Below are positions 16,862 to 26,148 of a DNA stretch of 64,000 bases, piece by piece (position 1 is the first letter of the stretch; the number at the start of each line of letters is the position of its first letter). Both the position numbers and the translations under genes were made by a program. This DNA comes from Nitrososphaeraceae archaeon (GTDB taxonomy: Archaea; Thermoproteota; Nitrososphaeria; Nitrososphaerales; Nitrososphaeraceae): NCBI GenBank assembly GCA_035250975.1, contig DATFEP010000064.1, forward strand, positions 40,226 to 104,225, written 5' to 3'. The notes under the pieces were generated by a model. That model was not told where the DNA came from. It ran no database searches and was given only the letters and a program-made list of their open reading frames with translations.

Positions 16862-19150
16862 GTGATAATAAATTTAAATAACTTGAGAATATCTATTTCT
16901 GGAACAATACAAGGTGTAGGTTTTAGACCTTTTATCTATAGAATTGCAAATGAATCTCATCTTTACGGGTATATACAGAATAAAGGAGATGGGATCGTAG
17001 AGATCTGCGTTCAAGGAAGCCAGAAAAATATTGAACTTTTCATAAGAAAAATGAAAAATGAGAAACCCGTCCTTGCACATTATGATCATATTGATATCAT
17101 GGATCTTGATGAGAAAAAAAAATACAATGATTTTACCATAATTGATAGTTCCAAAACAAGATCAAAAACAGGTTCTTCAATCCACCCGGATATTTCAATA
17201 TGTAAAAAGTGTACGATAGATTTTTATCAAAATAAAAGGAGATATCAGTATCCATTCATCTCATGTACCGAATGTGGGCCAAAATTTACGACATTAAAAA
17301 TGTATCCTTACGACAGAACAAATACAACAATGTCAGATTTTGCAATGTGTAAAGAATGCGAATCTGAATATAATGAACCAAAGAATAGATTATTTCATTA
17401 TGAACTAATATCCTGTACGGAATGTGGACCAAAATTTTCTATTGTAGATAACAAAGGTCATATTATCAATACCAATGATCCCGTATCACTTTCAGCGAAA
17501 TTGCTTATGGAAGGAAATATAATGGCTGTAAAGGGTCTTGGAGGTTTTCACGTCATAACATCATCCACAAAGTCCGAACCGATAATGAAATTGCGAAATA
17601 AAAAAGACAGAAAAAATAAACCTTTTGCGATCATGGGCAAAGATGTTCAATCCATAAAATCGTTTGCCTGCGTAAACGATTTAGAAGAAAAAATATTAAC
17701 TTCCATGACAAAACCTATTGTTCTATTAGACAAGAGTAACAATTATTTTCTTTCTCCTTTCATTTCACCGAATCTCCACAATGTTGGAGTTATGCTTCCT
17801 TATATGGGGTTACATATAATGTTATTCGAATCCATCGAAGAACCTGCTTTGGTTATGACCAGTGGAAACGAAAGTGGTAATCCGATAATAAAAGATAACA
17901 AAGAAGCTATAAAATCTCTAGGACATTATGTAGATTATTTTTTGATTCACAATAGAGAAATATTTTCGCGATGTGATGACTCGATAATTAAAGTCATAGA
18001 AGATAACCCTATACTATTAAGAAGATCCAGAGGATTCGTTCCATCAAAGATCTCTTTTACAAAAAGTATTCCAGATTGTATTCTAGCACTTGGTGGAGAA
18101 ATGAACGTAGTATTCTGTATATTATATAATGAAGACTGTTTCATTTCACAACATATTGGAGACCTTTATAATCCAGATTCTTATTTATTTTTTAAGAGTA
18201 CAATTGAACAAATGATGAAATTTCTAGATTTGAAACCGTCTTTTTTAGCATGTGATTTACATCCTTCTATGTTAACGACGAACTTGGCTTATAATATTGC
18301 TCAGAATGAATCTAACGTCTTTCAAGTACAACACCATCACTCCCATATAGCCTCTCTAATGTCAGAACACAACATACAAGATATTATAGGAGTGGTGTGT
18401 GATGGAATTGGATATGGTTTAGATGGAAATCTATGGGGTGGGGAAATATTCAAATGCGAAAATGTAACAAACATTCAACGAATTGGACATTTAATTGAGC
18501 AACCCATGATAGGAGGAGATTTGGCGACACTAAACCCCTTAAGAATGGTCGCCGGAATACTATATGGCAAGGTTGATGGTTTTGAAGATTTCCTATATTC
18601 AAATTTAACACGGTTCCGGTATGGACATAAAGAAATAGAATCCATCATTGGCAATCTGCAATCTGATTCATATTCCAAAACTACCAGTACGGGCAGGATA
18701 CTTGATGCAATATCATCTCTACTTGGGATTTGTTATGATAGAACTTATGAAGGAGAGCCTGCAATATCACTAGAATCAAGTTCAATAAATGGCAAAGATA
18801 TTTTCATTGATCCAAAAATATCAGGAAATATTTTGGATACTACATATTTACTAAAATTTATATACGAAAACAGAGGTAGGCTTTCTCCAAGGGATCTCGG
18901 TTATTCTGCCCATTCCTATCTCGCAAATGGTTTAGGAGAAATTGCTGCAGAAAATGCACTGTCTACGGGTATCAAAGTTGTTGGGTTTTCAGGAGGAGTT
19001 GCACATAATAGAATTTTTACAAAAATCCTAAAAGAAGAGATTGAGAAGAGGGGGTTGAGGTTTCTACTACACCAAAAAATTCCACCTGGAGATGGAGGAA
19101 TTTCTGTAGGTCAAGCTTATTATACTATGAATAAAATTCTAAATAGCTGA
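16862..19150 (+). CDS. hypF: Hydrogenase maturation carbamoyltransferase HypF
   Basis: Acylphosphatase domain (QGVGFRPF), two CxxC-x18-24-CxxCGP Zn fingers, KGLGGFH, QHHHSH, DGIGYG, PPGDGGISVGQ. Confidence 0.96.
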   Translation: MIINLNNLRISISGTIQGVGFRPFIYRIANESHLYGYIQNKGDGIVEICVQGSQKNIELFIRKMKNEKPVLAHYDHIDIMDLDEKKKYNDFTIIDSSKTRSKTGSSIHPDISICKKCTIDFYQNKRRYQYPFISCTECGPKFTTLKMYPYDRTNTTMSDFAMCKECESEYNEPKNRLFHYELISCTECGPKFSIVDNKGHIINTNDPVSLSAKLLMEGNIMAVKGLGGFHVITSSTKSEPIMKLRNKKDRKNKPFAIMGKDVQSIKSFACVNDLEEKILTSMTKPIVLLDKSNNYFLSPFISPNLHNVGVMLPYMGLHIMLFESIEEPALVMTSGNESGNPIIKDNKEAIKSLGHYVDYFLIHNREIFSRCDDSIIKVIEDNPILLRRSRGFVPSKISFTKSIPDCILALGGEMNVVFCILYNEDCFISQHIGDLYNPDSYLFFKSTIEQMMKFLDLKPSFLACDLHPSMLTTNLAYNIAQNESNVFQVQHHHSHIASLMSEHNIQDIIGVVCDGIGYGLDGNLWGGEIFKCENVTNIQRIGHLIEQPMIGGDLATLNPLRMVAGILYGKVDGFEDFLYSNLTRFRYGHKEIESIIGNLQSDSYSKTTSTGRILDAISSLLGICYDRTYEGEPAISLESSSINGKDIFIDPKISGNILDTTYLLKFIYENRGRLSPRDLGYSAHSYLANGLGEIAAENALSTGIKVVGFSGGVAHNRIFTKILKEEIEKRGLRFLLHQKIPPGDGGISVGQAYYTMNKILNS

Positions 19151-19204
19151 TTTTTTATTATCTATAATCTTTATAGGCTAGATTTTCCTATCAATTCCAG
19201 GCTT

Positions 19205-19519
19205 ATGTGTTTGGCTTTTCCAGGCAAGATAACTGAAATAATAGGAGATTTTGCCAAGATAGATTTTGGTGGAGGTACTATGAGAAATAATATTAATATT
19301 TCCTACGTTGATGGTCAAGTGGGAGATTATGTTCTTATTCATGCAGGGTATGCAATCCAAGTATTGGACCTGGTTGAGGCCGAAAATATATTGAAATACT
19401 GGGTCGACAATACATCTTGGAAGTGTAACCAGTGTGAAATAATAAATGAATGTTACACCGGAAATTTGGTTAAAGAAGTAAAACAGATTAAACATAATAA
19501 CTTGGGTTCGGAATCATGA
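19205..19519 (+). CDS. hypC: HypC chaperone with Cys-containing C-terminal extension
   Basis: MCLAFPG start, GDYVLIHAGYAI; extra KCNQCEIINEC tail. Confidence 0.92.
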   Translation: MCLAFPGKITEIIGDFAKIDFGGGTMRNNINISYVDGQVGDYVLIHAGYAIQVLDLVEAENILKYWVDNTSWKCNQCEIINECYTGNLVKEVKQIKHNNLGSES

Positions 19520-20625
19520 TTCTAGAAAAGTACAAAGATCCCGAATTAGCAAAGAATATTACTGAAAAGATCCGTGAATATGCCGATTCGATAGAAGAGA
19601 ACCTGCTTTTTATGCATGTTTGTGGATCTCATGAATGGACGATATCTCACTATGGCATAAGGTCGCTGATCCCTAAAAATATAGAGATAAGACCTGGACC
19701 TGGCTGTCCTGTTTGTATTACTCCAGCTGAGGATATAGACAATGCCATAAAGCTCGGTTTAGAAGGAAAAACCATTTTAGTATATGGAGATATGTCAAGG
19801 TCGAAGGGATCAAAAGGAAAAAGCCTTTTAGATATAAGGGTACTTGGTGCTAAAATCAAGATAGTATACAGCATACAGGAAGCCATATTATTAGCAAGAA
19901 ATGACCCAACAGAAGACTTCGTCTTTTTCGGAGTAGGATTTGATACCACTGCCCCTCCTACTGCATTTGAGATATTGAAAGGTTTACCACCGAATCTTGC
20001 TATCATTAATTCATATAGATATATGCCTCCAATAGTGGGTGCAGTTATAAAATCGTCTGTACTGGGTGTGGATGCCGTATTAAATCCGGGACATTCATCT
20101 ACAATAACTGGAATGAAACCTTATTACAGATATTTTCTAGAAACTAGAAAACCTCAAGTCTTTTGTGGATTTGAACCTATTGACATTTTATTGGGAATTC
20201 TAATTCTGTTAAAACAGATAAAAGATGGAAAGGCGAAACTAGAAAATGAATATCAAAGGTCAGTCACATGGGAAGGAAATAAACATGCTCAGAAAAAACT
20301 TGAAGATGTATTTGACCTAGACACAGGTTACATAAGAGGAGTAGCAAGTATTCCAGAATGCGGTTTTACGTTTAAGGAAAAATATAAGGATGTTGATGCA
20401 TATGTCAAATATGGTTTATCAAGGCAAACAAATAATGAACATTTTGTAGCAGGAGCTCGATGTGGTGAAGTGATTTTAGGTCTTTGTGAACCTACTGAAT
20501 GTCCGCTATATATGAAAGAATGTACTAAACAGACACCTAAAGGGCCTACGATGATTTCTCTTGAAGGCACATGTAGAATATGGGCTGAACATAATCTGAT
20601 TAAATCTATAAAAAAACTTTCTTAA
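19516..20625 (+). CDS. hypD: Hydrogenase maturation protein HypD
   Basis: CGSHE, GPGCPVC, GFDTT, PGH, C-terminal Cys cluster ending EGTC. Confidence 0.94.
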   Translation: MILEKYKDPELAKNITEKIREYADSIEENLLFMHVCGSHEWTISHYGIRSLIPKNIEIRPGPGCPVCITPAEDIDNAIKLGLEGKTILVYGDMSRSKGSKGKSLLDIRVLGAKIKIVYSIQEAILLARNDPTEDFVFFGVGFDTTAPPTAFEILKGLPPNLAIINSYRYMPPIVGAVIKSSVLGVDAVLNPGHSSTITGMKPYYRYFLETRKPQVFCGFEPIDILLGILILLKQIKDGKAKLENEYQRSVTWEGNKHAQKKLEDVFDLDTGYIRGVASIPECGFTFKEKYKDVDAYVKYGLSRQTNNEHFVAGARCGEVILGLCEPTECPLYMKECTKQTPKGPTMISLEGTCRIWAEHNLIKSIKKLS

Positions 20626-20644
20626 TATTCAATATTGATCTTTT

Positions 20645-21427
20645 ATGGCTTTTTTTATAGGAAATAGTTTTTGTAAACTTTGTCAAAAGGATGAAGAACA
20701 ACTTGTAAGTGAATTATTTTACTGTACAAAGGGACTAATTAATAAGGGTTATTCGATAATTAAAAATACACTAAATAGTGCACGACTCCCAAGTTGTGAC
20801 GACTTTTATGTAACATATTTTAAAAATAATATATGGAATTCAGATATCAAAGTACTAAAAATAAATATAAAAGATTGTTGTAATAATCATGAACAACCCA
20901 CAAACGGTGTTGAAGTTGATAAAGGCGAAATTTTGCTACATACGAAAATATATCAAGCTCGTCCGGATGTCAATGCTATTTGTCATACAAGAAATCCATA
21001 TTCGATAATTTTAGACAATGATACTTTTAAAAGAGTACATGGAGAAGCTACATTGATCTTAGGCGACATTCCTATCATGGATATTGAAAATTTTTCTGAT
21101 GAAAATAGAACGGTGAGCTTCATAGAAAAAATAGTTCAATCAACTATAGGCGAACCCCTAAGGCCTATAAGAACCGTAATATTATCAAACAATAGTGTTT
21201 TGGCTCTTGGTTCCTGCATACATGAAGCAAGAGCATTTACAGAAATACTGGAAGAATGTGCCAGATTTTACATGATATCTAAAATTTTTGGCGGACCGCT
21301 AAATCTGCTTACACTTGATCAATTGAGAGGTTTGGGATCGAGATATGCAAGAGCCATAAAATTTGGAGGAAGGAAAATAATGTCTAATGCGAATCGTCCA
21401 GATGTTCGGATTAATAAAAATTTTTGA
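20645..21427 (+). CDS. Class II aldolase/adducin family protein, metal site degenerate
   Basis: GEILLHTKIYQARPDVNAICHTRNPY and LSNNSVLALG; N-terminal FCKLC. Confidence 0.75.
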   Translation: MAFFIGNSFCKLCQKDEEQLVSELFYCTKGLINKGYSIIKNTLNSARLPSCDDFYVTYFKNNIWNSDIKVLKINIKDCCNNHEQPTNGVEVDKGEILLHTKIYQARPDVNAICHTRNPYSIILDNDTFKRVHGEATLILGDIPIMDIENFSDENRTVSFIEKIVQSTIGEPLRPIRTVILSNNSVLALGSCIHEARAFTEILEECARFYMISKIFGGPLNLLTLDQLRGLGSRYARAIKFGGRKIMSNANRPDVRINKNF

Positions 21428-21831
21428 AAATGATGCTAAAAAAAATTCTAGTTTTTGGTAATCCTTTGGTTAGAAGGGACAGCCTGCCTCTAAAATTATT
21501 AGATGATCTTAGAAATGAATTTCCTAACATAGAATTCAAAGAATTTGATTCAATTGAAGAGATACAAAATGAAGGGGATACTCTTTACATTTTGGATTCG
21601 GTAGAAAAAATAAAAAAAGTGATGGTAATAACCGATTTAGATCAATTGGCTACAGACAAAATATATTCGGTCCATGATTTTGATTTAGCTATCAACCTCA
21701 AGATACTAAAGAAAATAGGTGTGATAAAAAAGATAATTATTCTTGGAGTGCCTATGAATATTACGCATAGTCAGGCATTACAAGAGATTAGAGAAAAAAT
21801 TATATCCATTTCAATCTCAAAAAATGACTAG
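21424..21831 (+). CDS. Short hydrogenase maturation endopeptidase-like protein
   Basis: ILVFGNPL...D, YILDS, SVHDFDL motifs of the HyaD/HycI fold; adjacent to the large subunit. Confidence 0.75.
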   Translation: MKMMLKKILVFGNPLVRRDSLPLKLLDDLRNEFPNIEFKEFDSIEEIQNEGDTLYILDSVEKIKKVMVITDLDQLATDKIYSVHDFDLAINLKILKKIGVIKKIIILGVPMNITHSQALQEIREKIISISISKND

Positions 21832-23077
21832 CACAACTCATACACGGATCGTATGCCCTTATTATTTTTTCAAGCTCATGATAAATAAAGTGTTTATCTT
21901 TGTCTAAAATGCTAGGTAAATGATTTTTTATATCATTTTCCATCTTAATTTGATTTTGTGCTGTTGGTATTACAAAGTTGGCAAATTGTACTTTTCCTTC
22001 TCTGTTAAGTTCAACCATATGATACAATGTACCACGAGGAGCCTCTATTACTCCAACTCCTTTACCTTCTCTTGTTTTAATTTCGGGAGGAGATTCGCGA
22101 GTAAATTCATTTTCTTCAAGAATTTGAATAGTATGATCTATACAATGTAGAATTTCAATAGATTGTGCAAGATTGTTATGATAAATATTATTTGATGGAA
22201 AGACTTTAAGGATTTCAGATATATCCTTTTTTGAATTTTTATGGATAGATTCTCTATTCAAATTTAACCTAGCCAAAGCTCCTACCATGTATTCTTTGTC
22301 CCTGAATCTAAATCCAGTAGCCTGAGAATACGGGATAATAATTCTTTCTAGGTGATTCCAATATTCATCTTCTTTTATTTTCATTCCGTCTGAAGAAGCG
22401 ATCTCACCCTCCAAAAAACTAAAATCGTCTGTAACTAGAGATACGAAAGTGGATTCTCTGCTAAGGTCAAAATTGCATTCATAAAATATTTTTATGAGTT
22501 CAAGAACCGTATCTCTAGTTGCTTTAAATTCTGACAATAATTCTTTTAAATTTTCTTTTGAAGGTAAATGAGAAAACTGTCCAACCTTTTCAAATGTTGG
22601 ATGAACAGCCCTGCCAGCAACTATTTTCGAAAGATTGTTTCCAAGACTTTTTACATTGAAACCCTGTTTGATTAGATAATTTTTTGTTTCATCAAAATCA
22701 AATACAGAATCTGTATTAAAAACATCAGGAAGACAGAAGAAGTACAAATGTAAAGCATGATCCCGTATCATCATTCCATATACAGATAACTTTCTTAATA
22801 ATTCAGTTTGTTTTGTTGGTGTGATCTCGAGACATTTTTCGATTGATTCAATGCTACAGGTTAAGTGTGCTATGCTACATGTACCGCATATCCTAGAAAC
22901 AAATTGTGGAACACTAGAAAAATGTCTATTTCTTACTGCTTGTGTATAAAATCTTTTATTTTCATTTATCTTTAATTTGACATCTTCTACTTTTCCCTTC
23001 CTAATTTTTACTTCAATGTCTGCATGACCTTCTGTTTTACTTATTTGTTCTATATTGATATCGAAACTATCATGCAT
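21800..23077 (-). CDS. [NiFe]-hydrogenase large subunit, group 3b-like
   Basis: EGH, L1 motif RICGTCSIAH, GRAVHP, EAPRGTLYH, L2 motif RAYDPCMSCASH followed by a short cleavable tail FLRLKWI. Confidence 0.92.
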   Translation of the reverse strand: MHDSFDINIEQISKTEGHADIEVKIRKGKVEDVKLKINENKRFYTQAVRNRHFSSVPQFVSRICGTCSIAHLTCSIESIEKCLEITPTKQTELLRKLSVYGMMIRDHALHLYFFCLPDVFNTDSVFDFDETKNYLIKQGFNVKSLGNNLSKIVAGRAVHPTFEKVGQFSHLPSKENLKELLSEFKATRDTVLELIKIFYECNFDLSRESTFVSLVTDDFSFLEGEIASSDGMKIKEDEYWNHLERIIIPYSQATGFRFRDKEYMVGALARLNLNRESIHKNSKKDISEILKVFPSNNIYHNNLAQSIEILHCIDHTIQILEENEFTRESPPEIKTREGKGVGVIEAPRGTLYHMVELNREGKVQFANFVIPTAQNQIKMENDIKNHLPSILDKDKHFIYHELEKIIRAYDPCMSCASHFLRLKWI

Positions 23078-23549
23078 TTACAAGACCAAATTCCTTCATA
23101 TAACCATCTAATTTTGATAGAAATAATTTTTCATCCATTGGACATCCCGAAATGAAATCATCAACATTTACAAATTCCGAAATAGGAGATACCTTGTTTC
23201 TTTGTCCAAACTGCTCTAAAATATGGAAAATCTCATTTTTTGTCGAATCATCAAAGTAATTTCTTTGATTCGCTGGGCTTCCTGTACATGCACAACTTCC
23301 TATTGCAATTAATTTTTTTGAATTCTTCCTTATTTCTTTAAGAAATTCAAGCTCTTTGTCAGTTGAAATTGCTCCTTCTACAAAAGCCAAATCTAAATTA
23401 GTAAAATCGTTTTTTCCTTTGAAAGTTCTAAAATATTTAAAATCCAGTAGATCTTTCCACTTTAAAAAATTATCATTCATTAATTCTATGAACACTATAG
23501 TACTGTCTTCGCAACATGTAAATGAAAACCAGCCAGTTTTGAGTTTCAT
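23070..23549 (-). CDS. [NiFe]-hydrogenase small subunit, proximal-cluster domain only (start probably ATG 23549)
   Basis: FSFTCCEDS, FVEGAI, IAIGSCACTG, ISGCP; no medial/distal cluster domain; 8-bp overlap with the large subunit. Confidence 0.85.
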   Translation of the reverse strand: MKLKTGWFSFTCCEDSTIVFIELMNDNFLKWKDLLDFKYFRTFKGKNDFTNLDLAFVEGAISTDKELEFLKEIRKNSKKLIAIGSCACTGSPANQRNYFDDSTKNEIFHILEQFGQRNKVSPISEFVNVDDFISGCPMDEKLFLSKLDGYMKEFGLVNA

Positions 23550-23710
23550 TAACACATTAGCAATAAAGCTATCGTATTTAAAATAGTTCACCTTTTTGAT
23601 TCCCAATTTTCATTTTAACATATTTGTTTTAGAAAATTGTGTTGCGACATTTTATTATTTAATTTACGTTAGTTATCTTATTAAATTCTAAAAATCGATC
23701 ATCTTAAATC

Positions 23711-24829
23711 TTGTTAACAAAAAATTATCTTTTTACAAAGAAATTTGAAAGAGTTCTAAATACTATAACTATAATGGAAAAAAAGAGAATAAGTCTAGCA
23801 CACGGAGCAGGTGGTGTGCTTATGAATAACCTGATTAAAAACCAAATCTTGAAATACTTTAGTTTAAACCATCATGAAGTTTCCTTAAATGCTCTAGACG
23901 ATGCGGGTATAACTGAAGGCATTGTTTTTACTACAGATTCTTATACAGTAAAACCGCTTTTTTTTCCTGGAGGTAATATAGGTGTAATGTCTGTTGCGGG
24001 AACCGTAAACGATATTGCAGTAATGGGTGGAAAACCCTTAGTGCTATCATGTAGTATGATAATTGAAGAAGGCTTCTCAATTGAGGAGTTAGACCTAATT
24101 ATAAAAAGCATTCAAGAAACATGCATTCAAGCTGACGTGGATATAATTACAGGAGACACCAAAGTTCTAGAAAGAAATGCGTTGGACAAACTAATTATTA
24201 ATACTTCTGCTGTTGGTAAAAAAAGTCAATACTTAGAAAAAAATCTAAAGATTGTAAAAAGATACAACCCCAACTTTAATTCTGATTGGTTACTTGATTC
24301 AAATATTGAGAAGGGGCACAAAATAATAATTTCAGGAACACTAGGTGATCATGGGGTTGCGATAATGTCTGCAAGAAATGAATATGGTTTGGAGAGTCAA
24401 GTAGAATCAGATGTTGCACCATTAAATAATTTGATTCAAAAAGGGCTTGATGTCGGAGGCGTAGTAAGCATAAAGGATCCCACGCGTGGAGGACTTGCAA
24501 ATCTTCTAAATGAATGGTCTGAGAAATCAAAAACTGGTTTTATAATTCTTGAAAAAGATATTCCCGTTAAAGAAAGCGTGAGAAGTGCATTAGGATTTCT
24601 TGGACTTGATGTATTAGAAATAGGAAATGAAGGAAAAATTTGCCTAGCGGTAATACCGGAAAAAGCAGAAGAAATACTAGGTATCTTGAGAGAAACACCA
24701 GAAGGTAAGGATGCGATGATAATTGGAGAGGCAACAGACGAATTTGATTTACCTATCCTGGAAACTCAGATAGGCGGTAGAAGAATCCTTGCAAAACCTG
24801 CAGCAGATCCTATTCCCAGAATATGCTAG
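23711..24829 (+). CDS. hypE: Hydrogenase maturation carbamoyl dehydratase HypE
   Basis: HGAGG, TTDSY, GTVNDIA, GDTKV, DPTRGG, C-terminal PRIC; true start probably MEKKR. Confidence 0.96.
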   Translation: MLTKNYLFTKKFERVLNTITIMEKKRISLAHGAGGVLMNNLIKNQILKYFSLNHHEVSLNALDDAGITEGIVFTTDSYTVKPLFFPGGNIGVMSVAGTVNDIAVMGGKPLVLSCSMIIEEGFSIEELDLIIKSIQETCIQADVDIITGDTKVLERNALDKLIINTSAVGKKSQYLEKNLKIVKRYNPNFNSDWLLDSNIEKGHKIIISGTLGDHGVAIMSARNEYGLESQVESDVAPLNNLIQKGLDVGGVVSIKDPTRGGLANLLNEWSEKSKTGFIILEKDIPVKESVRSALGFLGLDVLEIGNEGKICLAVIPEKAEEILGILRETPEGKDAMIIGEATDEFDLPILETQIGGRRILAKPAADPIPRIC

Positions 24830-25108
24830 GTGATATCGTTGTTTAGAGGAGTAGAAGATCGTGTCAACAAAAAATTAATTTGTAAAGTTTGCGGATATAT
24901 TGAATATAATTTTCCAAAACATCACGAAATGCCTATGAGATGGATTACAACCGGTAGTTTTAATAAAGAAGAACTTTTGAAATGTCAAAAATGTGACTAT
25001 ACAATACCGATCTTAATACATTGTAATGTGTCAATGTTTTATTCTGAAGGGGATTATCTTGATTTACCTGAATTTACAAAAAAAGATTATCAGGATATAG
25101 ACAAATAA
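24830..25108 (+). CDS. Small tandem CxxC...H(H/C)xxxM metal-binding protein
   Basis: CKVCG..PKHHEMPM and CQKCD..IHCNVSM; directly abuts hypE. Confidence 0.65.
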   Translation: MISLFRGVEDRVNKKLICKVCGYIEYNFPKHHEMPMRWITTGSFNKEELLKCQKCDYTIPILIHCNVSMFYSEGDYLDLPEFTKKDYQDIDK

Positions 25109-25109
25109 A

Positions 25110-25484
25110 GTGATTATGTTGTCATTTTTCTGGCATTTAAAATTTGCTATTTTTATGTTTGAGATCGCTAAATCTGAATTGAATAAAAATAATTATGTAG
25201 TAGCTAATGCTGTCATTAAAACTTTTACAGAGATAATAGATGCCTATTTATCGAAGGCGAATAATCTTATTGATGAAGCAAGTTTAGAGGGATGGAAAGA
25301 AAGAATCCATTGGATGAGTGAAAATAATCATGAATTATTAAATGAATGGAAAATGGTGAATTCTCTTTGTTTTGAGATGATGAATCAGGGAAAATACTAC
25401 AACAACGTTGCAATAAAATTAATAGAAATAGTTCAAAATAGACTAAATAAGATTGGATCAGATGATTACGGGGATTACTTTTAA
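25110..25484 (+). CDS. Helical hypothetical protein, possibly HEPN-like
   Basis: Abuts the previous ORF; EIAKSELNKNNYVVA..IIDAYL resembles HEPN/PaREP1 N-terminal helices (weak). Confidence 0.45.
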   Translation: MIMLSFFWHLKFAIFMFEIAKSELNKNNYVVANAVIKTFTEIIDAYLSKANNLIDEASLEGWKERIHWMSENNHELLNEWKMVNSLCFEMMNQGKYYNNVAIKLIEIVQNRLNKIGSDDYGDYF

Positions 25485-25494
25485 TTTGATTGAT

Positions 25495-26148
25495 CTAATT
25501 CGTCAACTTTTTAACCACTAGGCATTTTGCCCACTCTTCGCATAAATCAACTACAAATTTTGCTTCATGAATGCATCTGCCCACACCTATAACTCCATGG
25601 TTCAATAATATTATTAATCCAAACGGAACTACACAATCAAATTTACTTGCCTTACCCACGAGATTTCCTAATCCCTTAGACCCGAGTTGTTTGTACTCAA
25701 CTATCAAGGGTTTATCATGTAATACTTTTGGAAAAGCGATGGATGGTGTTCCTGCTAATGTCCATATACCTTCATTGTCTATATTTACTAGTTTAGAAGA
25801 CAGAAAATATCCTGAGGTATAGGGATTATGAACGTGACATACTGCATTAATATCTGATCTGTTTTTATATATTTCAGTGTGAAAAGGAACTTCGATAGTT
25901 GGTTTAAGGTTTCCCTTCAAAACATTTCCATCCAAGTCGATTAACAATAGATCGTCTGAAGTTATATGTGATCTTGGATATCCAGATGGAGTGATCCAAA
26001 TTTGATTATCTAATTTTGAACGAAAACTATGGTTTCCACCACCAACCGAAACCAACCCATGGGAAAAAAAATACTTTATAGCAGATATTAATTCATTTTT
26101 AAACATATGTTCGTCATATACTTTACAAATATCACAAAACATCTTCAT
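25495..26148 (-). CDS. Class II aldolase/adducin family protein (FucA/MtnB-like), intact metal site
   Basis: GGNHSFR, ITPSG, PTIEVPFH, CHVHNPY, LLNHGVIG; N-terminal FCDIC. Confidence 0.85.
   Translation of the reverse strand: MKMFCDICKVYDEHMFKNELISAIKYFFSHGLVSVGGGNHSFRSKLDNQIWITPSGYPRSHITSDDLLLIDLDGNVLKGNLKPTIEVPFHTEIYKNRSDINAVCHVHNPYTSGYFLSSKLVNIDNEGIWTLAGTPSIAFPKVLHDKPLIVEYKQLGSKGLGNLVGKASKFDCVVPFGLIILLNHGVIGVGRCIHEAKFVVDLCEEWAKCLVVKKLTN

Follow-up and report, generated by a model that had tools for sequence, protein, structure and literature searches.

Positions 16862 to 26148 of a 64,000-nucleotide stretch of DNA from a Nitrososphaeraceae archaeon (GenBank assembly GCA_035250975.1, contig DATFEP010000064.1, positions 40,226 to 104,225 of the forward strand; the whole stretch is hereafter called the window) hold the genes of a two-subunit [NiFe]-hydrogenase together with hyp maturation genes and four accessory genes. 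The large and small subunits are encoded on the minus strand, between hypF, hypC, hypD, an aldolase-like gene and a protease gene on one side and hypE on the other, an arrangement set out in a preliminary description of the sequence and confirmed, with all the named genes intact, by scans of open reading frames (ORFs) and protein families. The locus is likely to encode a genuine cytoplasmic hydrogenase of the minimal 'hyd2' type, related to group 3b, in a cluster that is a replacement mosaic. Its genes and features are as follows.

16862 to 19150, plus strand: hypF, carbamoyltransferase of 762 amino acids (aa); TIGR00143 at 793 bits against a cut-off of 466
19205 to 19519, plus strand: hypC, 104 aa, N-terminus MCLAFPG; over the cut-offs of PF01455 and TIGR00074
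19516 to 20625, plus strand: hypD, 369 aa; TIGR00075 at 370 bits against 193, with CGSH and GPGCPVC motifs
20645 to 21427, plus strand: ald1, degenerate class-II-aldolase-like protein of 260 aa; PF00596 at 58 bits
21424 to 21831, plus strand: putative divergent hydrogenase maturation endopeptidase of 135 aa, by predicted fold and invariant residues
21800 to 23077, minus strand: [NiFe] large subunit, hyd2 type, related to group 3b, 425 aa; PF00374
23070 to 23549, minus strand: small subunit with proximal-cluster ligands only, 159 aa; PF01058
23550 to 23773: intergenic region from which the small-subunit gene and hypE diverge, with TTTTAAAT at 23576-23583 on the minus strand
23711 to 24829, plus strand: hypE; TIGR02124 at 359 bits against 252, C-terminal PRIC
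24839 to 25108, plus strand: o92, Cys/His-rich protein, a component of the thaumarchaeal hyp operon
25110 to 25484, plus strand: o124, helical protein, a component of the thaumarchaeal hyp operon
25495 to 26148, minus strand: ald2, class-II-aldolase family, 217 aa; PF00596 at 118 bits

Family scans also bear out the earlier statement that no beta, gamma, hypA, hypB or hypX gene lies within the window, and the earlier gene inventory stands as far as it went, having overlooked ald2 and the small ORFs o92 and o124. The structural pair had been described as inserted backwards: its orientation is as stated, and relative to the order in other members of the family it reflects a single inversion of the block running from ald2 to the protease gene. 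The window's gene order recurs at the related loci L008, L009, L016 and L049, and a second order (L010, L014 and L023) runs hypF-hypC-hypD-ald1, ald2, then o124-o92-hypE on the other strand, followed by small subunit, large subunit and protease; one inversion of the same block separates the two. The host assembly comprises 2.49 Mb in 91 contigs, with 94.6% completeness and 2.6% estimated contamination, and the window lies on a 104-kb contig, its flanks encoding a P-type ATPase, Usp, a CoA-transferase, a hydrolase, a phosphoesterase and a CBS protein. An archaeal AmoA is encoded in the same genome (394 bits), and the host is therefore an ammonia oxidiser.

The large subunit was said to be intact and proves so, with RICGTC at residues 62-67 and DPCMSC at 410-415, the latter followed by ASH and a seven-residue tail, FLRLKWI. 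It matches PF00374 at 97.3 bits (cut-off 25.8), is the one PF00374 gene in the whole genome, and shares the cysteines of both CxxC pairs with all 20 of the 20 large subunits compared; these pairs we take to be the RxCGxC and DPCxxC motifs of Ni-Fe ligation. The best NCBIfam matches are ShyA (269 bits, below its cut-off of 700) and HydA (210, below 880), and the nearest solved large subunits are Thermococcus kodakarensis HyhL (5yxy, 194 bits) and the alpha subunit of sulfhydrogenase-1. Two terminal features of the protein family were also seen. Extensions by ORF calling aside, nearly all of 42 hyd2-type large subunits start with Met-His (the exceptions being L034, with MQ, and L029), the first codons of the window's large subunit lying at 23075-23077, and none of five canonical 3b large subunits does. 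The nickel site of HypA is an N-terminal Met-His-Glu, and it is pure speculation that the Met-His start might be a built-in means of nickel capture where HypA is missing. At the other end, many large subunits from the Candidate Phyla Radiation (CPR; L047, L045, L030, L031, L033 and others) finish in CATNFL, the residue just before the cleavage site, normally His, being Asn; His is kept there in the window's large subunit and in all archaeal members.

For the small subunit, the 159-aa form given earlier, starting at the ATG at 23549, is backed by homologues that begin MKLxxGWFSF; ORF calling stretches the frame to a TTG at 23606 (178 aa). When the window protein and nine relatives were aligned with four canonical 3b small subunits (254-270 aa) belonging to this archaeal order, the difference in size proved to be a difference in clusters: the window protein has 159 aa and five Cys where canonical subunits have 254-288 aa and 12-13 Cys, and it ends just after the fourth Cys of the proximal cluster, where the canonical subunits add eight more Cys for two further clusters. 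The ligands, common to the window protein and the nine relatives, are a tandem CC (canonical: CxxC), then GSC and GCP, and the best solved match covers residues 2-148 of the sulfhydrogenase-1 delta subunit. A small subunit is present in 41 of 46 related loci, at a median of 162 aa; these loci comprise 14 from Nitrososphaeraceae or Nitrososphaerales, six from Aenigmatarchaeota, five labelled 'uncultured archaeon', one each from Nanoarchaeota and Chloroflexota, and 19 from Patescibacteria or other bacterial metagenome-assembled genomes (MAGs). The TATA-like TTTTAAAT noted upstream does lie 26 nucleotides 5' of the ATG, and it is no commoner in the window, whose G+C is 30%, than chance would have it (27 occurrences observed, 31 expected), so that taken alone the octamer is no evidence. 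The two closest relatives, L007 and L008, have it unaltered, AT-rich boxes are similarly placed in other relatives, and the region may serve as a promoter. One relative of the small subunit (P0241, 548 aa, 66% identical) is split by an intein with LAGLIDADG and intein-splicing Pfam domains, the break falling between residues matching 18 and 13 of the window protein.

The 135-aa ORF convergent with the large-subunit gene, which it overlaps by 32 nucleotides at the 3' ends, matches no Pfam or NCBIfam family at an E-value of 0.001 or better, PF01750 included. Its AlphaFold model (pLDDT 81.5) nonetheless finds T. kodakarensis HybD (5ija, E 2.6e-6), Escherichia coli HybD (1cfz, TMq 0.65) and then HycI in Foldseek, with hydrogenase maturation proteases at ranks 1, 2 and 4-11. 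All 18 homologues keep D19, D58 and H84, G12, N13 and D87 are likewise invariant, and the first three presumably correspond to the metal ligands of HybD and HycI. A profile of the 18 homologues gave marginal matches to sequences in the PDB (5ttx at E 0.53, tied with an alcohol dehydrogenase), and it is on its predicted fold that the protein is accepted as a probable divergent, short maturation endopeptidase. With HybD and HycI (1cfz, 5ija, 2e85) it shares that fold, the invariant Asp/Asp/His and a dedicated gene adjoining the large subunit, and it differs in being shorter (about 130 aa against 150-165), in escaping PF01750 and in its convergent, overlapping placement. The gene is found in 41 of the 46 related loci, nearly always convergent with the large-subunit gene and often overlapping it.

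No further structural subunit was found, as had been proposed from the sequence of the locus: the enzyme appears to have two subunits only. A ShyB-like beta subunit (NF040829) has no match in the host genome or in any of 111 family genomes sampled, and it is present in other families of the order (7/11, 6/97, 1/2 and 1/4 genomes). Across the rest of the host genome the search that the preliminary description had proposed for the two missing genes returned no beta and, for a ShyC-like gamma (NF040830), two look-alikes: the best match is PyrK (NF000796, 218 bits), immediately preceded by a 316-aa ORF, and the other a generic FNR-like reductase. Neither beta nor gamma is among the neighbour families common to the 46 related loci. 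Because the small subunit has nothing beyond the proximal cluster, its electrons have to be handed at once to a different protein, and we take the recipient to be a flavoprotein or a ferredoxin that would be reduced directly by that cluster. A flavoprotein, either thioredoxin-reductase-like or FNR-like, is the leading candidate, if tentatively; a ferredoxin is rather less probable, and something else again about as probable as a ferredoxin. There are 34 longer proteins that contain this type of small subunit (E 0.001 or better, 47-66% identical), and in 32 of them it sits C-terminally behind a flavoprotein part, 23 with PF07992 (thioredoxin-reductase-like FAD domain) and nine with PF00970 and PF00175 (FNR-like); of the remaining two, one is interrupted by the intein and one carries the small subunit N-terminally. 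In 10 CPR loci the trio of small subunit, large subunit and protease stands beside a small ferredoxin, a 2-oxoacid:ferredoxin oxidoreductase (OFOR) and a fusion protein (L033:6712-9570(-) and relatives) in which an ADP-forming acyl-CoA synthetase carries a C-terminal FNR-like FAD/NAD-binding module. Direct hand-over from a proximal cluster to another protein would have precedents, by analogy, in HoxY of group 3d (5xf9_C, 189 aa) and in chain E of 7t2r (179 aa), whose small subunits likewise consist of the proximal domain only, though similarity to the window protein is low (31-33 bits). In those enzymes the acceptor is a fixed diaphorase module of the same operon, and none is encoded at the window. 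The sole match in the host genome to the single-cluster ferredoxin of CPR type is the C-terminal part of a 188-aa ORF (G000:C2:35071-35637(+)) that resembles a DnaJ J-domain at its N-terminal end; PMC8407114 has an entry on a DnaJ-ferredoxin protein of Thaumarchaeota among its references.

The maturation genes present a more conventional picture. HypC (57 bits, NCBIfam cut-off 48), HypD, HypE and HypF each exceed their cut-offs and keep their hallmark motifs, and HypF has all five of its Pfam domains (Acylphosphatase, zf-HYPF, Sua5, HypF_C and HypF_C_2). HypF is 46-47% identical to the HypF encoded beside canonical 3b clusters in a sister family here called f9, which the names attached to its HypD relatives suggest is Nitrosocaldaceae, and HypE is 59% identical to its f9 counterpart; homologues of HypE have 350-353 aa, which suggests that the real start of the gene is the ATG at 23774. 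Outside the family the nearest relatives of HypD belong to Nitrosocaldaceae/Nitrosocaldus (67-69%) and then Sulfolobales (57-59%). The C-terminal tail of HypC, WKCxxCEIxxEC with three Cys, occurs in all eight of the Nitrososphaeraceae copies compared (window, L008, L009, L010, L014, L016, L023 and L049) and in none of three CPR copies. In f9 a long HypC (111-137 aa, L072-L078) is 52-57% identical, and a second, short hypC is also present. A search of the whole host genome for HypA and HypB, likewise proposed earlier, found neither: the best match to HypA reaches 23.8 bits, below 28.9, and has an internal stop, and HypA is over the cut-off in none of five hyd2-bearing ammonia-oxidiser genomes (the host and four at 93-99% completeness), as compared with a canonical-3b genome in which it is. 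The HypB-like match in the host genome is UreG (219 against 204), and that genome yielded no HypB in a search that did not extend to the archaeal Mrp/MinD type, as we presume it to be. From these parts a working sequence may be proposed, in which the catalytic large subunit would pair with a small subunit bearing a single proximal [4Fe-4S] cluster, the adjacent HypC, HypD, HypE and HypF would build the Fe(CN)2CO centre, and the short dedicated endopeptidase would then cleave the seven-residue C-terminal tail. Judged from its sequence, such an enzyme would probably be active, and might either consume or produce H2.

Within the family the enzyme is patchily distributed. The large subunit is found in 17 of 238 Nitrososphaeraceae genomes and four of 18 genera, and HypD in 15 of the same 238, all of them among the 17; the two carriers that lack HypD are G199, whose locus lies at a contig end, and G228, which is 78% complete. 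The G228 match (G228:C35:2116-3342) holds a TGA and a TAA in frame and could be a decaying copy or the product of assembly errors; it is the exception among family large subunits, which are 68-96% identical and otherwise have open frames. In a sample of 401 genomes from the order, matches of at least 70% identity occur solely in Nitrososphaeraceae (12 of 112, the host included) and matches of at most 36% in four other families, with none in between, and against the canonical four-subunit 3b enzymes of sister families the window's large subunit is 32-35% identical. A protein search with the large subunit returned Nitrososphaeraceae and Nitrososphaerales at 70-97%, followed by Aenigmatarchaeota and Micrarchaeota at 58-66%, and in the genome collection the nearest relatives outside the family are from Aenigmatarchaeota (54-65%), Nanoarchaeota (50%) and Patescibacteria (44-48%). 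The likeness to CPR and DPANN enzymes noted in the preliminary description is thus real: the nearest relatives outside the family are of these groups, and the trio of small subunit, large subunit and convergent protease is conserved there.

Separate phylogenies of the three genes, as had been suggested, all place or pair Nitrososphaeraceae with a subgroup of Aenigmatarchaeota. The large-subunit tree was built from 47 rows, 42 of hyd2 type and five canonical 3b sequences as an outgroup that is thaumarchaeal alone, fragments under 400 aa from L023, L028, L048, L050 and L052 being omitted. In it Nitrososphaeraceae are monophyletic (support 99) and nested in a DPANN clade (98), where their sister group is the Aenigmatarchaeota loci L017-L019 (94); bacterial sequences make up a clade of their own (96), and the window's large subunit groups with Patescibacteria that have the same short partner, apart from the five canonical sequences (99). 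The small-subunit tree (47 rows) agrees, with monophyly at 97, the Aenigmatarchaeota as sister group at 89 and the window's subunit again in a clade with Patescibacteria and apart from canonical 3b, and the protease tree is compatible but weaker, with a joint clade at 83 (unrooted, 38 of 41 rows, three short ones having been dropped).

The surroundings of these three genes have a different ancestry. In two f9 genomes a single stretch holds hypF (divergent), the beta subunit, a cyclic-nucleotide-binding (cNMP) protein, gamma, delta (266-272 aa), alpha and HycI, followed by a hyp part of short HypA, short hypC, hypE, o92, o124, long hypC, hypD, ald1 and ald2; in a third, 118 kb separate the structural genes from the hyp part, which there runs from short hypC to ald2, and in a fourth HypA, short hypC, hypE, o92 and o124 are seen and no more. 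The order hypE-o92-o124-hypC-hypD-ald1-ald2 is whole in three f9 genomes, and hypE-o92-o124 occurs in all five. Every non-structural gene of the window cluster, both 'aldolases' included, has a counterpart in the f9 operon at about 30-69% identity (hypF, long hypC, hypD, ald1, ald2, hypE, o92 and o124), with the sub-orders hypE-o92-o124 and hypC-hypD-ald1 in common and with ald1 next to ald2 as in the second of the two family orders. What f9 has and the window does not is the native structural set (beta, gamma and the 266-272-aa delta, which has 270 aa at a further f9 locus), its cNMP-binding regulator, a HycI recognisable by Pfam (PF01750, 52 bits), the short HypA and the second, short hypC; the structural genes that both possess are 31-35% identical. 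The cyclic-nucleotide-binding gene lies between beta and gamma in the canonical thaumarchaeal operon (L063:8755-9219(-), L077:3303-3755(+) and L078:16677-17141(-)) and is absent from the window cluster. With shared hyp and accessory genes on the one hand, and a DPANN-type trio standing in place of the native structural genes on the other, the cluster reads as a replacement mosaic. The mosaic of an imported structural module and a TACK-type maturation module envisaged earlier is therefore upheld, HypD being nearest to Nitrosocaldaceae and Sulfolobales and absent from the DPANN and CPR carriers searched for it, with a shift in the limits of the modules: the protease belongs with the imported genes, and the 'aldolase' with the native maturation genes. 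On this evidence an ancestor of some Nitrososphaeraceae would have kept the thaumarchaeal operon of hypF, long hypC, hypD, ald1, ald2, hypE, o92 and o124, and its native four-subunit 3b genes, HycI and HypA would have given way to a small subunit-large subunit-protease module related to that of Aenigmatarchaeota-like DPANN.

The four accessory genes travel with the hyp genes and deserve description in their own right. In ald1 one of the three metal His is kept, the second is lost and the third mostly lost, in alignments of both families f1 and f9; the protein has conserved motifs of its own (GNSFCxLC, GEPLRP and RYARxIKFGGR) and a basic C-terminal tail, and its f9 orthologue, directly 3' of hypD in the canonical-3b clusters, is 39-41% identical. 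In ald2 the HxH...H metal triad is kept (HVH...NHG), an extra CxxC is found near the N-terminus, the nearest solved structure is a fuculose-phosphate aldolase (6btd), and the f9 counterpart, which follows ald1, is 49-50% identical; the metal-ligand positions of the class-II aldolases are presumed to be those of E. coli FucA. Neither protein reaches an equivalog cut-off, and both carry conserved Cys not seen in ordinary members of the family. An aldolase-like gene 8 kb from a canonical cluster in family f10 (31% identical), with many unrelated ORFs between, is probably unrelated. Orthologues of ald2 (at least 63% identity) and of o92 occur in the same nine of 25 genomes of the host genus, all of them positive for the large subunit, and neither gene occurs in any of 15 large-subunit-negative genomes of that genus, save for distant aldolase paralogues at 26-35%. 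The o92 protein has the pattern CxxC..PxHH..CxxC..HC..MxYS, with two CxxC pairs about 30 residues apart and 31 columns invariant in eight of eight sequences. Its family is a small one, of 18 clusters among 1.84 billion representatives; its named members are from Nitrosocaldaceae and from the Sulfolobales genera Saccharolobus and Metallosphaera, and by profile search it lies directly after hypE in five of five f9 genomes. Pfam returns weak, generic zinc-ribbon matches for o92, and Atlas neighbours include desulforedoxin- and rubredoxin-like clusters at 0.80-0.83, below 0.9 and thus at the level of leads. The o92 model has a pLDDT of 66 and no Foldseek match at E 0.001 or better, and in a predicted complex with the large and small subunits o92 scored 0.26 and 0.00 against a mark of 0.32. 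As a candidate HypA it was rejected (hhalign probability 0.06 against f9 HypA, which has MHE and no zinc ribbon). The remaining gene, o124, is conserved in nine Nitrososphaeraceae loci and follows o92 in five of five f9 loci at 28-34% identity; it matches no Pfam or NCBIfam family over the cut-off, and its Atlas leads, below 0.9 and in one case from a query form without the first 15 residues, are HEPN/PaREP1-like.

One must consider a number of points that weigh against reading the locus as a working minimal hydrogenase within a mosaic. The searches returned neither member of the pair that usually inserts nickel, HypA and HypB, and the genes present do not account for nickel delivery. HypD is found in none of 10 DPANN and CPR carriers (L017, L020, L022, L027 and L039 among archaea; L033, L036, L040, L042 and L047 among CPR) and HypE in none of five, and the small-genome carriers that lack a HypD match keep HypC-like and DUF6390 genes beside the enzyme. 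The gamma subunit was sought in the host genome alone, and with that genome 94.6% complete in 91 contigs, absence from it is on its own no proof. Host relatives of the fused flavoproteins (on C80, C12, C10, C81 and C72) are 26-36% identical, have no hydrogenase neighbours and look like ordinary housekeeping genes. Soil RNA contigs from three libraries of two studies cover parts of hypF, hypC/D, hypE, ald2/o124 and the 5' part of the large-subunit gene at 90-99% identity and give a weak hint of expression; these contigs are short and possibly carried-over DNA, X16 is probably DNA, and the parts of the stretch left uncovered in RNA runs X18-X20 are uninformative. All trees came from a 'quick' search (IQ-TREE), and forcing the 11 DPANN large subunits into one clade was 24.8 log-likelihood units worse with a p-value of 0.107 in the approximately unbiased (AU) test; since such a clade is not rejected, a DPANN-like donor is favoured and not demonstrated. 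Were the locus a decaying or non-catalytic relic, serving as an H2 sensor or scaffold, the missing HypA and HypB, the two in-frame stops and lack of HypD in G228, and the absence of any test of this enzyme type in an organism, according to the relevant parts of PMC7304191 and PMC10432482, would all be in keeping with it; yet the metal-ligand motifs, cleavable tail and protease ligands are intact and invariant across deep divergence, four hyp genes exceed curated cut-offs and strictly co-occur with the enzyme, and apart from G228 the large subunits of the family, as conserved as they are, have open frames, so that a relic is very improbable. Less credible still, to the point of being barely conceivable, is an artefact in which the hydrogenase genes of a DPANN cell were wrongly joined to an ammonia-oxidiser bin during assembly or binning: the fragmentation and estimated contamination of the assembly would allow it, but the DPANN-like genes lie inside a 104-kb contig, flanked by thaumarchaeal-type hyp genes at the same G+C of about 0.31, the arrangement is seen again in independently assembled genomes, among them contigs 1.8 Mb and 579 kb long that carry the label Nitrososphaerales or Nitrososphaeraceae, and at least part of the stretch was found in 13 studies.

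The direction of transfer admits a second history, in which a native four-subunit 3b enzyme was reduced within Thaumarchaeota and DPANN archaea acquired the minimal form from ammonia oxidisers. The AU result leaves room for it, PMC8407114 infers, in the part concerned, many gene transfers from TACK to Aenigmarchaeota, and the full hyp set accompanies the ammonia-oxidiser version alone. It is nevertheless unlikely, given identities of 32-35% to sister-family 3b enzymes against 54-65% to Aenigmatarchaeota with no intermediates in 401 genomes of the order, the deeper branching of CPR and Nanoarchaeota in the hyd2 clade, the patchy occurrence in 17 of 238 family genomes, and best trees of all three genes that nest or pair Nitrososphaeraceae with one Aenigmatarchaeota subgroup. 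The history that these sequences favour, short of proof, is accordingly one in which a DPANN-like donor passed the genes to the ammonia oxidisers. It might also be argued that the enzyme is not truly of two subunits, and that its missing partner in electron transfer, which would dock on the proximal cluster, is to be sought among ald1, ald2, o92 and o124. Strict co-occurrence of o92 and ald2 with the hydrogenase in the host genus speaks for this, as do the two CxxC pairs and conserved His of o92, which may be rubredoxin-like at the lead level given above, and the conserved Cys, unusual for the family, of the aldolase-like pair. The same four genes, however, stand in f9 clusters that have a full beta and gamma, so that they cannot be a replacement peculiar to the minimal enzyme; the DPANN and CPR loci that possess this enzyme are without them, and the model of o92 is weak, with no significant structural match. 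A partner among the four is thus quite unlikely. Because they accompany both types of enzyme, ald1, ald2, o92 and o124 are read instead as maturation or protection factors. They might supply the CO ligand in air, as a counterpart of bacterial HypX, or deliver nickel without HypA and HypB. A wider reading, possible though doubtful, is that they constitute an unrecognised branch of [NiFe] maturation in aerobic Thermoproteota and that mesophilic soil ammonia oxidisers run a working minimal hydrogenase with them, in which case electrons from H2 would go to a flavoprotein or thiol system, or excess reductant would be vented as H2.

Among known systems the closest in description is the hyd2 enzyme of CPR bacteria (Jaffe 2020, BMC Biol 18:69, PMC7304191), reported in the section concerned as having a 3b-related large subunit on a long branch, an uncertain function, a consistently short small subunit (mean 164 aa) and no proximal beta or gamma gene. 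The window's enzyme shares the short small subunit, the lack of beta and gamma and a clade with Patescibacteria, the match being to that published description rather than to Jaffe's sequences. The host is no ultra-small symbiont like those carriers but an archaeon that oxidises ammonia aerobically and has a genome of 2.5 Mb; the window adds adjacent hypCDEF and the four accessory genes, and it has none of the ferredoxin, OFOR, DUF6390 and EamA neighbours of CPR loci, relatives of the last two also being absent from the host genome. With canonical 3b enzymes (Pyrococcus furiosus SHI and SHII, T. kodakarensis Hyh) the window's enzyme has in common its active-site motifs, its cytoplasmic location, its nearest curated families (ShyA at 269 and HydA at 210 bits, HydD and ShyD at about 60) and its nearest solved structures (5yxy, 9nez and 9e15); it differs in lacking beta and gamma and the medial and distal clusters, in its tandem CC for CxxC, and in falling short of the ShyA equivalog cut-off. 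With no beta or gamma and a single-cluster small subunit, coupling to NAD(P) cannot be assumed. Among thermophilic ammonia oxidisers, Candidatus Nitrosocaldus cavascurensis and Ca. N. islandicus are described as having four 3b subunits, maturation factors and a cAMP-type regulator (PMC5797428, PMC5817080), the main texts of these two papers making no mention of 'aldolase' or 'hypA'. A 2023 review of ammonia-oxidising archaea (PMC10432482) lists, in its relevant section, the Nitrosocaldus 3b enzymes and non-catalytic Ehr complexes alone, and none of the four-subunit Nitrosocaldus enzymes is reported as tested in the corresponding parts of PMC10432482, PMC5797428 or PMC5817080. Hot-spring Nitrososphaerales are said in general terms to encode 3b and 3d enzymes in the pertinent passage of PMC11094006. 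A search of the literature found no paper describing the hyd2 enzyme type in Nitrososphaeraceae. The enzyme type is already known, and what appears to be new is its presence in mesophilic ammonia oxidisers, the history of module replacement and the shared accessory genes.

On this account some of the mesophilic Nitrososphaeraceae of soil would possess an apparently complete [NiFe]-hydrogenase system, and H2 uptake or emission by abundant nitrifiers becomes a concrete, testable question. Runs of 13 studies, mostly of soil, contain the stretch or a near relative. The locus offers a clean natural case of a structural module swapped with the maturation module retained, and reveals a conserved, uncharacterised set of hyp-operon genes in Thermoproteota. 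Other hyd2 carriers are hard to grow, and those searched have neither HypD nor HypE; with a standard maturation set alongside, the ammonia-oxidiser version is the most tractable hyd2 enzyme, one that could realistically be co-expressed and assayed. Two full copies of the cluster core, L010 and L012, occur in a single MAG (G203, contigs C83 and C115; 73% complete, 4% contamination), their large subunits each about 71% identical to that of the window, and they may be paralogues or represent two strains binned together.

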